In this document: positions 52,157 through 52,914 of the stretch, in pieces
How the letters are laid out: each line of letters starts with the position of its first letter
Numbering within the stretch: the stretch's first letter is position 1
DNA from: Escherichia phage 92CQ
Sequence record: PV682554.1
Reading direction: 5' to 3' (one strand)
DNA length: 64,000 nucleotides
Made by a program: the position numbers and the translations under genes
Notes under the pieces: model-generated
The model's input: only the letters and a program-made list of their open reading frames with translations
The model's database searches: none
What the model was told of the DNA's origin: nothing

Positions 52157-52639
52157 ATGGAACAACAAAAAGATAATACTATTGCAAAATTTGCTCGTCC
52201 AGAAGTAATGGTTGAAATTGATCTGGATGAAGGACGCAGTGTAAAATTTAGAGTTCTCAAGTGGAGTCCAACTAAAGTTTTTGAAAGGATTCCAGAACTA
52301 GGTAGTGTACTAGCTGTTCCTATGACAATGTATAATACTGCTCTTATGTCAGCAGATGAAGATCTAGAAGCTCGTATTGCTATGGCGCTGATCCAGTTAT
52401 TCAGTGGTCTGGAAGAAAAAAACTTAGCCGCATTCTTACGTAAAATTTTAGATGAAGTTTACACAGAAGCAGGTCACAGTGTTTCCGATAATTTTGATGA
52501 ATTGTTTTTTGCTCACCCAGAATTAGTTGTTGACTTAGCTGCAAAAGTTCTTGAGGTGAACTATGCCCCTTTTTTCAAACGAGGTTTCGGAAAACTGTTG
52601 ACCCAATTTCAAGGAATAGAGACTCTAGCGAAGAGTTAA
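52157..52639 (+). CDS. tail assembly chaperone (G-like), putative
   Basis: 160 aa immediately upstream of tape measure; contains slippery run near its 3' end. Confidence 0.5.
   Translation: MEQQKDNTIAKFARPEVMVEIDLDEGRSVKFRVLKWSPTKVFERIPELGSVLAVPMTMYNTALMSADEDLEARIAMALIQLFSGLEEKNLAAFLRKILDEVYTEAGHSVSDNFDELFFAHPELVVDLAAKVLEVNYAPFFKRGFGKLLTQFQGIETLAKS
52566..52576 (+). other. candidate -1 programmed frameshift slippery site (CCCCTTTTTTC)
   Basis: In the 0 frame reads C_CCU_UUU / U_UUU_UUC; the -1 frame is open from here to 52914. Confidence 0.5.
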
Positions 52640-52686
52640 GTCCGGCAATTAAATCAGCAATTGAAATTGCCTCACAAACCCTTAGC

Positions 52687-52914
52687 TTGACATGGTATGA
52701 AGTAATTCTTTGTAAGGTAATTAAGAATACCTCCGAAACCTTGTCCTCGTTAGATAATTATGGTGTAGATTATCTACTTAAAATTTATGAATATTTAACA
52801 TTTGAAGATTATGTACAAGATCTTCACGTTAAAGATGCGGATATTAAACGTGGTCAACAGAGAACAATAAGAGAACTGGATACGGCTATGAAAAGATTAA
52901 TTCCAGATTCATAA
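52687..52914 (+). CDS. C-terminal extension of tail assembly chaperone (GT-like, reached by -1 frameshift), putative
   Basis: Frame is -1 relative to 52157..52639 and open back to the slippery run; TTG at 52687 is probably not a true start. Confidence 0.45.
   Translation: MTWYEVILCKVIKNTSETLSSLDNYGVDYLLKIYEYLTFEDYVQDLHVKDADIKRGQQRTIRELDTAMKRLIPDS

Follow-up and report, generated by a model that had tools for sequence, protein, structure and literature searches.

We analyzed a 64,000-nucleotide (nt) stretch of the genome of Escherichia phage 92CQ (PV682554.1), referred to here as the window, and focused on its tail assembly chaperone gene at 52157–52639. Comparison with related phages makes it very likely that this gene encodes two chaperone forms, a short one and a long one that arises when ribosomes undergo a programmed −1 slip on the heptamer U_UUU_UUC at 52570–52576. 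The majority of ribosomes would read 52157–52639 in the 0 frame and make the short form of 160 amino acids (aa). A minority would slip back by one nucleotide with two tRNA-Phe on UUU in the P site and UUC in the A site, and a slip one codon earlier on the overlapping C_CCU_UUU would give the same protein. The slipped ribosomes would then read CAA ACG AGG UUU CGG… as far as the stop codon at 52912–52914 and make a 252-aa long form, consisting of the 140 N-terminal residues common to both forms and a 112-residue C-terminal domain. By analogy with G/GT of lambda and E/E+E' of P2, the shared N-terminal part may coat the tape measure protein (52934–54913), and the rarer C-terminal domain may recruit the tail tube protein (51632–52111) and start its polymerization, with the sheath following. 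Neither form would be found in the virion, both having departed before its completion. The shift efficiency is probably low if the ratio of G to GT in lambda, about 30:1, is a guide.

The run CCCCTTTTTTC lies at 52566–52576 and is read in the 0 frame as GCC CCT TTT TTC AAA. The preliminary description of this stretch, made from its letters alone, had placed a slippery run here, in the open reading frame (ORF) 52157..52639 about 20 codons before its stop, and had recognized in it the overlapping 0-frame heptamers C_CCU_UUU and U_UUU_UUC. Both heptamers were found in register, at 52567 and 52570, and all other features and coordinates of that description were likewise confirmed. The TTC of T_TTT_TTC is codon 140 of the chaperone gene and is separated from the stop by 20 sense codons. 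In the −1 frame, a TGA at 52552–52554 is followed by an open stretch that begins at 52555 and ends with a TAA at 52912–52914, in agreement with the earlier claim that this frame is open from the run to 52914 and is the frame of a downstream 75-aa ORF. The 0 and −1 frames are both open over 52555–52639, a zone of 28 codons that contains the two heptamers. The fusion, estimated beforehand at about 250 aa, comes to 252 aa with the junction foreseen (…NYAPFF/QTRFRKTVDP), and the product is the same from either heptamer. A peptide across this junction has no power to separate the two heptamers, or ribosomal from transcriptional slippage, because all of them give an identical peptide.

We counted 104 in-frame X_XXY_YYZ heptamers in the 17,167 codons of the 69 long ORFs of the window; therefore about 0.16 would be expected by chance in a dual-open zone of 28 codons. 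Taken alone, before any comparison, the heptamer could be within chance. The full configuration is rare: a heptamer combined with a −1 extension of more than 250 nt was found in only one other gene of the window (ORF 9356–10186, minus strand).

In that minus-strand gene, a T_TTA_AAC (9352–9371, minus strand) lies in frame four codons before the stop of the 276-aa ORF, with a −1 frame that stays open for 90 codons. It was rejected as a frameshift candidate; the downstream ORF (9093–9359) has its own AAGGAG-N6-ATG start, and the arrangement is an ordinary overlap.

The region 50100–55100 of the window shares 99.4% identity with Escherichia phages EC_OE_11, VEcB, and JohannJBalmer and with other Justusliebigvirus genomes. 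Justusliebigvirus belongs to the Stephanstirmvirinae and comprises phi92-like myoviruses with genomes of 145–149 kb. Over the 758 positions of 52157–52914, there are four differences from the phi92 type genome, all of them away from the slip site. For a deeper comparison, we used 15 GenBank relatives with chaperone identities from 84% down to 27% (Klebsiella KP2025, Citrobacter Tr1, phAPEC8, Av-05, FENT2, SalP219, rV5, POP15, Ro1, pEa_SNUABM_55, 4MG, PBES02, phiTE, Kashira, and Vibrio S4-7) and 52 IMG/VR loci found by a chaperone profile, giving 67 loci in total. The slip site was compared in 48 unique sequences of Stephanstirmvirinae, Vequintavirinae, and metagenomic contigs, with 24–100% protein identity.

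The downstream frame was −1 in 67/67 loci and stayed open for 155–278 nt past the chaperone stop. The +1 frame closed within 4–94 nt in all loci and was rejected as the outcome of a shift. T6(C/G) was in register in 48/48 unique sequences (T6C in 44 and T6G in four), a count that comes from kin sequences and not from independent trials. The comparison with orthologous chaperone pairs, which had been proposed as a check, showed both the run, in all 48 unique sequences, and the open −1 frame, in all 67 loci. T_TTT_TTC was located within the dual-open zone in the enterobacterial-type sequences, and T_TTT_TTG took its place in the four most distant ones (24–36% identity; loci L065, L066, L069, and L070). 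The T run was exactly six in all T6 relatives and never longer. The −1 frame always opened before the heptamer, in many relatives only 9–15 nt before it.

The codons of the run are fixed at their wobble positions. The codon preceding it was TGT in 24 of the 48 unique sequences, CCT in 18, TCT in five, and AGT in one. These codons represent three amino acids and four codon families, and every one of them has T at the wobble position. The first Phe codon of the run was TTT in 48/48, while Phe codons elsewhere in the same genes were divided between 190 TTT and 201 TTC. The alignment indicates that the wobble T is retained through several amino acid replacements, despite the kinship of the sequences. 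The earlier heptamer, C_CCT_TTT, was kept in the Stephanstirmvirinae-like group and is lacking in the Vequintavirinae, which have TGT in place of CCT; therefore, it is not the universal site. In five Vibrio phages, whose chaperones are 27–40% identical to each other, the sole in-frame heptamer in the dual-open zone was A_AAT_TTT, which precedes the T6 position by 3–4 codons. An Ala/Val change has left the wobble A of this heptamer intact, and downstream of it the −1 frame encodes a conserved KFYD motif. By these comparisons, conservation of the site and of its register goes far beyond chance.

The −1 frame itself bears the marks of a coding sequence. Its translations align across the Stephanstirmvirinae and Vequintavirinae and are conserved from 2–3 codons after the slip, with the shared motifs S-L-x-W-[YF]-[DE], C-[KR], S-E-T, D-Y-L-L-K, E-Y-L, and E-[ED]-[YF]. 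The predicted fusion is 242–258 aa long throughout the relatives. We counted substitutions by codon position in ten Stephanstirmvirinae-like sequences free of indels. Upstream of the heptamer, the 0-frame counts at the first, second, and third positions were 15/5/47. In the 47 nt from the chaperone stop to the TTG at 52687 (52640–52686), which contain no start codon in the window, the −1 frame counts were 18/12/38. After this TTG they were 8/6/22, with the periodicity unchanged. This pattern indicates that the −1 frame is under protein-coding constraint before any start codon.

The limits of the shift can be narrowed by an Arg-Phe-Arg motif (RFR) of the −1 frame, which starts 12–15 nt after the start of the heptamer. 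In the alignment of 16 sequences from the two subfamilies, R3 and F4 of the extension are invariant and R5 is conserved in at least 90%. The opening of the −1 frame together with this motif places the frame change between 52555 and 52581, so that RFR marks the latest point for the shift. Within this interval, the overlapping pair at 52567–52576 contains the only X_XXY_YYZ heptamers. In rV5 and in locus L041, a C-to-A change keeps the Arg of the −1 frame and turns the Phe of the 0 frame into Leu; therefore, the constraint there acts on the −1 protein.

RFR is the most conserved feature of the entire C-terminal extension, and it overlaps Gly-Phe of the 0 frame in a nucleotide-invariant GGTTTCG. 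This block can be explained by dual coding (0-frame Gly-Phe and −1 frame Arg-Phe-Arg) or by a role at the RNA level, two explanations that the data cannot separate.

The 160-aa product was assigned to Pfam PF21822 Phage_TAC_15 (E = 1.6e-22; 80.8 bits against a cutoff of 22) and to PHROG 3840, "tail assembly chaperone" (E = 4e-54). The −1 part matched PHROGs 16039, 10409, and 8811, all of which are of "unknown function" and were built from separately called small ORFs. No family was matched by the −1 part in a Pfam search, and a sequence-profile search of solved structures gave no meaningful match. When 5.8 billion proteins were searched with the 252-aa fusion, no fusion-length protein of the chaperone family, annotated or natural, was found; the 45 matches were all 151–175 aa long and covered 46–60% of the query.

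Ribosomal slippage is favored over polymerase slippage by the sequence comparisons. The heptamer class H_HH.U_UU.Y, which includes U_UU.U_UU.C and C_CC.U_UU.U, is among the most efficient in E. coli, and IS elements make use of the first of these two heptamers (PMC4066793). Several points nevertheless weigh against a ribosomal slip in this phage group. Support for it is wholly comparative, and the relatedness of the sequences makes counts of the 48/48 type overstate the number of independent events. Outside the Vibrio clade, every site is a T6 homopolymer and not one of several different heptamers, as would also be expected of a transcriptional-slippage site. No conserved 3′ stem-loop or pseudoknot was detected near the site by RNAalifold in 12 Stephanstirmvirinae-like and 14 Vequintavirinae sequences, and the fold of the 100 nt after the heptamer in the window was unremarkable (z = −1.5). 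A motif upstream of the heptamer that could serve as a stimulator, GAGG/GGAG, is lacking in 10/48 unique relatives, including Certrevirus and Ro1-like sequences. The C-terminal part of the chaperone of Citrobacter phage Moogle, a known system compared below, gave a weak, motif-level match to that of the window, which was non-significant (E = 0.0047, probability 7.5%).

We evaluated the candidate stimulators on both sides of the heptamer. A 3′ stimulatory structure was rejected on the basis of the z value and the RNAalifold result, which contained no conserved pairs. An Rfam scan of 52000–53100 gave nothing above the gathering scores; a sub-threshold SraG match and a sub-threshold CRISPR repeat were listed on the minus strand. 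On the 5′ side, a GAGG/GGAG motif is located 10–13 nt upstream of the heptamer in 38/48 unique relatives, in Moogle, and in 4/5 phages of the Vibrio clade. It overlaps conserved Leu-Glu-Val codons, and its conservation may be at the protein level. GAGGTG at 52553–52558 may act as a 5′ stimulator, and it is the sole candidate stimulator in our account of a ribosomal slip.

A long-range helix was also considered. The segment 52579–52591 (ACGAGGTTTCGGA), which adjoins the 3′ side of the heptamer, is complementary over 13 bp, G:U pairs included, to 52732–52744 (TCCGAAACCTTGT), about 150 nt downstream in the codons of a conserved TSETL motif. Complementarity of this extent was reached by 2/200 shuffles. 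At the homologous offset, 8 bp are left in locus L022 and nothing comparable is found in the other relatives. The helix is beyond covariation testing because Justusliebigvirus genomes are at least 99% identical. It was set aside as a conserved stimulator and is regarded as due to chance or specific to the genus.

A variant of the proposed mechanism, which we regard as unlikely, is that the signal of the clade formed by Stephanstirmvirinae, Vequintavirinae, and Andersonviridae exceeds a bare U6 heptamer, either through unusual stimulators or through polymerase slippage on T6. The upstream GAGG at its dnaX-like spacing may contribute to such a signal, the GGUUUCG block 6–9 nt downstream may act through RNA or through the nascent peptide (RFR), and in Justusliebigvirus the 13-bp helix 52579–52591/52732–52744 may add to it. 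GAGGTG, GGTTTCGG, and the arm 52732–52744 may be the corresponding elements in the window.

Transcriptional slippage by itself, in which RNA polymerase adds one U on T6 (52570–52575) and the same 252-aa protein results, appears improbable. The element conserved in 48/48 sequences is indeed a T6 homopolymer with C or G as the seventh base, a 3′ stimulatory RNA structure is not conserved, and conservation of the protein is neutral because the product is identical. A non-translational mechanism is also said to have been proposed for T4-like chaperones, going by the title of a study by Vladimirov et al. from 2022 that is cited in PMC12846349. E. coli RNA polymerase slips productively on runs of about 8–9 or more, and T6 is shorter than this. 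No relative lengthens the run to T7–T9, as would be expected under selection for polymerase slippage. The Vibrio sister clade uses A_AAT_TTT, an A3T4 sequence on which polymerase slippage is implausible, at nearly the same spot, and the Shine-Dalgarno-like motif recurs at a dnaX-like spacing. Moreover, the depletion linked to slippage has been tied to U7 and A7 runs and not to U6C (PMC4066793).

It is very improbable that the downstream ORF is a separate small gene, expressed from its own start (TTG 52687 or 52741) or by termination-reinitiation, and that the heptamer is incidental. The annotation of the GenBank records examined agrees with a separate gene, and the small ORFs form families of their own in PHROGs. 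The ORF is annotated as a "hypothetical protein" with its start at 52687 (in window coordinates) in EC_OE_11, JohannJBalmer, and phi92 and at 52741 in VEcB, so the annotated starts differ among near-identical genomes. In the rV5 record, the call of the downstream ORF overlaps the chaperone gene. No Shine-Dalgarno sequence precedes TTG 52687, TTG 52741, or ATG 52888, the only in-frame −1 starts in the window, and the phi92 record annotates a ribosome-binding site for gp132 and gp134 and none for gp133. An in-frame start is not conserved; in loci L027, L031, and L035, the first one comes 180–204 nt after the heptamer and already within the conserved domain, so late that it would drop the conserved W-containing motif. 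The preliminary description was therefore right in finding no convincing start for this ORF. At 48 nt beyond the chaperone stop, even the nearest start is poorly placed for reinitiation. The −1 frame shows coding constraint and invariant residues upstream of every possible start, and its opening precedes the heptamer in all cases. We interpret the 75-aa ORF at 52687–52914 as a fragment of the long form and not as a gene.

The least credible alternative, a chance heptamer in the dual-open zone with a long form that is not usefully made and a downstream region that is a decaying remnant, could appeal to the 0.16 heptamers expected per zone in this genome, but it is already contradicted by the comparative data, namely a −1 frame without a stop in 67/67 loci down to 24% identity, a −1 protein conserved with third-position periodicity, and frozen wobble positions of the heptamer.

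The proposed ribosomal slip on U_UUU_UUC points to a gap in annotation. No joined coding sequence (CDS) was present in the inspected records of Stephanstirmvirinae, Vequintavirinae, and Vibrio phages, and the examined records of these groups list a "tail assembly chaperone" and a "hypothetical protein" with an arbitrary start. In the collection searched, 362 phage records carry a relative of the chaperone, including phi92-like, phAPEC8-like, and rV5-like phages, and several of them are of therapeutic interest. With a joined CDS, PHROG 16039 would gain a function, as PHROGs 10409 and 8811 probably would too, and gene counts would be corrected. The finding is an ordinary instance of a well-known device and adds no new principle. 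Frameshifting in tail chaperones has been known since 1993 and was recognized as widespread in 2004.

The features of the locus are summarized in Table 1. The chaperone pair lies on the same strand between the tube and tape measure genes, and both of its ORFs had been described as immediately upstream of the tape measure gene; the distance from the −1 stop to the tape measure start at 52934 is 19 nt. The gene order is kept in the relatives examined, phiTE alone having extra ORFs before the tape measure gene.

Table 1 Features of the chaperone locus in the window (coordinates are those of the 64,000-nt stretch).
Feature	Position	Strand	Remarks
Tail sheath gene	50167–51573	+	PHROG 205
Tail tube gene	51632–52111	+	Pfam KPP10_Orf10, PHROG 280
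Terminator-like hairpin and T tail	52115–52134	+	8-bp stem, 4 G-C pairs, tail ATTTTT
Shine-Dalgarno GAGG of chaperone gene	52148–52151	+	5 nt before ATG; same ribosome-binding site annotated in phi92 record
Tail assembly chaperone, short form (TAC-N / "G", 160 aa)	52157–52639	+	0 frame, ATG start
Shine-Dalgarno-like GAGGTG, candidate 5′ stimulator	52553–52558	+	11 nt upstream of T_TTT_TTC
First slippery heptamer C_CCT_TTT	52567–52573	+	0 frame, true X_XXY_YYZ
Main slippery heptamer T_TTT_TTC, proposed −1 shift site	52570–52576	+	0 frame, true X_XXY_YYZ
−1 frame extension ("T" part), 112 aa and stop	52576–52914	+	With 52157–52576, predicted 252-aa long form (TAC-NC / "GT")
−1 frame RFR motif (Arg-Phe-Arg; 0-frame Gly-Phe-Gly)	52582–52590	+	Alignment of 16 sequences
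75-aa ORF as called by ORF finders and several GenBank records (e.g., phi92 gp133)	52687–52914	+	TTG start
Tape measure protein gene, 659 aa	52934–54913	+	TTG start, GGAGG at 52922–52926; PHROG 16051, 1327 bits

The hairpin at 52115–52134, AAAGGGCAGAAATGCCCTTT plus ATTTTT, lies in the 45 nt that separate the tube and chaperone genes. A terminator is annotated at the equivalent place in phAPEC8. The hairpin may lower the expression of the chaperone and tape measure genes relative to the sheath and tube genes. The sub-threshold SraG match of the Rfam scan (52112–52239, minus strand, 34 bits against 50) overlaps this hairpin and is probably caused by it.

The tape measure protein has no match to a Pfam family despite its perfect PHROG match. 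Its residues from about 68 to 102 (window 53150–53260, plus strand) form a Gly/Ser/Pro-rich low-complexity segment, after which comes a highly charged segment rich in Arg, Glu, and Lys. The phiTE genome carries an insertion of about 1.1 kb, with two additional ORFs, where the chaperone extension ends and before the tape measure gene (L016, 2200–3346), and in Vibrio phage VnaP, a "putative homing endonuclease" directly follows the chaperone extension (L073, 2068–2919). The junction between the chaperone and tape measure genes looks like a hotspot at which mobile genes insert.

Some of the records had peculiarities of their own. In Raoultella phage Ro1, the tube gene is annotated as two pieces (L012, 935–1129 and 1168–1407, within 935–1407), while it is one gene of ~158 aa in all relatives; the split probably reflects an error of sequencing or a genuine disruption in the Ro1 record. 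The phi92 record FR775895.2 contains a "Hypothetical tRNA" feature inside the tail sheath coding sequence (L076, 377–469), which is almost certainly an annotation artefact. The unannotated GenBank records MG065689, MG065650, MG065658, and others ("Campylobacter phage A110a, B15, C7 …", labeled Campylobacter jejuni) gave chaperone match statistics exactly equal to those of E. coli phages and fell into three groups, with 100% identity to the window (Justusliebigvirus type), 75.0% (Phapecoctavirus type), and 29.3% (rV5 type). The Campylobacter host label looks doubtful, and contamination by coliphages or mislabeling may account for it.

We compared the locus with known frameshifting systems. The G/GT pair of lambda (Levin, Hendrix and Casjens 1993; Xu, Hendrix and Duda 2004, 2013, 2014; summarized in PMC5009743) likewise consists of a short chaperone and a long form extended by a −1 frameshift. 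It coats the tape measure protein and recruits the tube protein, and no strong RNA stimulator is required for the shift (PMC5009743). Unlike the window, lambda is a siphovirus with the heptamer G_GGA_AAG, and the window chaperone showed no detectable sequence similarity to lambda G or T. For the window, both the 30:1 ratio and the binding partners are assumptions carried over from lambda, where they are known. E/E+E' of P2 (Christie et al. 2002, J Bacteriol, listed as a reference in PMC5009743) is the contractile-tail, that is, myovirus, version of the same device. It differs from the window in that P2 has another protein family, is temperate, and has a small genome. The label "canonical G/GT" given to the locus in the preliminary description fits the kind of system; every element of the G/GT reading survived testing, and this interpretation is supported. 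It fits less well in that the phage is a myovirus, and the context is closer to P2 E/E+E' than to lambda. The slippery run of P2 is reportedly of the U6 type, T_TTT_TTG, which is the variant present in the most distant relatives L065, L066, L069, and L070.

The −1 signals of dnaX and IS elements combine a Shine-Dalgarno-like element about 10 nt 5′ of the heptamer with a 3′ hairpin or pseudoknot. The spacing of GAGGUG, 11 nt upstream of the heptamer of the window, is similar to that of dnaX. The window differs from these signals in having no conserved 3′ hairpin or pseudoknot, and the Shine-Dalgarno-like element is not universal in its family.

A close parallel, from a sister family, was found in Citrobacter phage Moogle (Andersonviridae), whose chaperone is stated in its genome announcement to have a translational frameshift (PMC4319497). 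Its record contains a joined "tape measure chaperone" CDS (flag j2) adjoining the tape measure gene, unlike the examined records of Stephanstirmvirinae and Vequintavirinae, which have no such joining. T_TTT_TTC is the only in-frame heptamer of the Moogle gene, 16 codons before the stop, and it falls in the same alignment column as in the window (LEANFGSFF in Moogle and LEVNYAPFF in the window). The two chaperones share a homologous N-terminal part (hhalign probability 96.6%, E = 6.8e-10). GGAGG is located 13 nt upstream of the heptamer in Moogle, the −1 frame ends at the tape measure gene, and the order of sheath, tube, chaperone, and tape measure genes is the same; the window has the overlapping C_CCT_TTT in addition. 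A paper of December 2025 argues for a −1 frameshift with an invariant GTTTTT motif in the Vandenendeviridae and Andersonviridae and notes their kinship to the Vequintavirinae and Stephanstirmvirinae, whose chaperone locus lies outside its analysis (PMC12846349). The slip context of the Vequintavirinae, TGTTTTTTC, includes this GTTTTT motif. The U_UUU_UUC site is conserved from the Andersonviridae to the Stephanstirmvirinae and Vequintavirinae, and A_AAU_UUU replaces it in the Vibrio clade.

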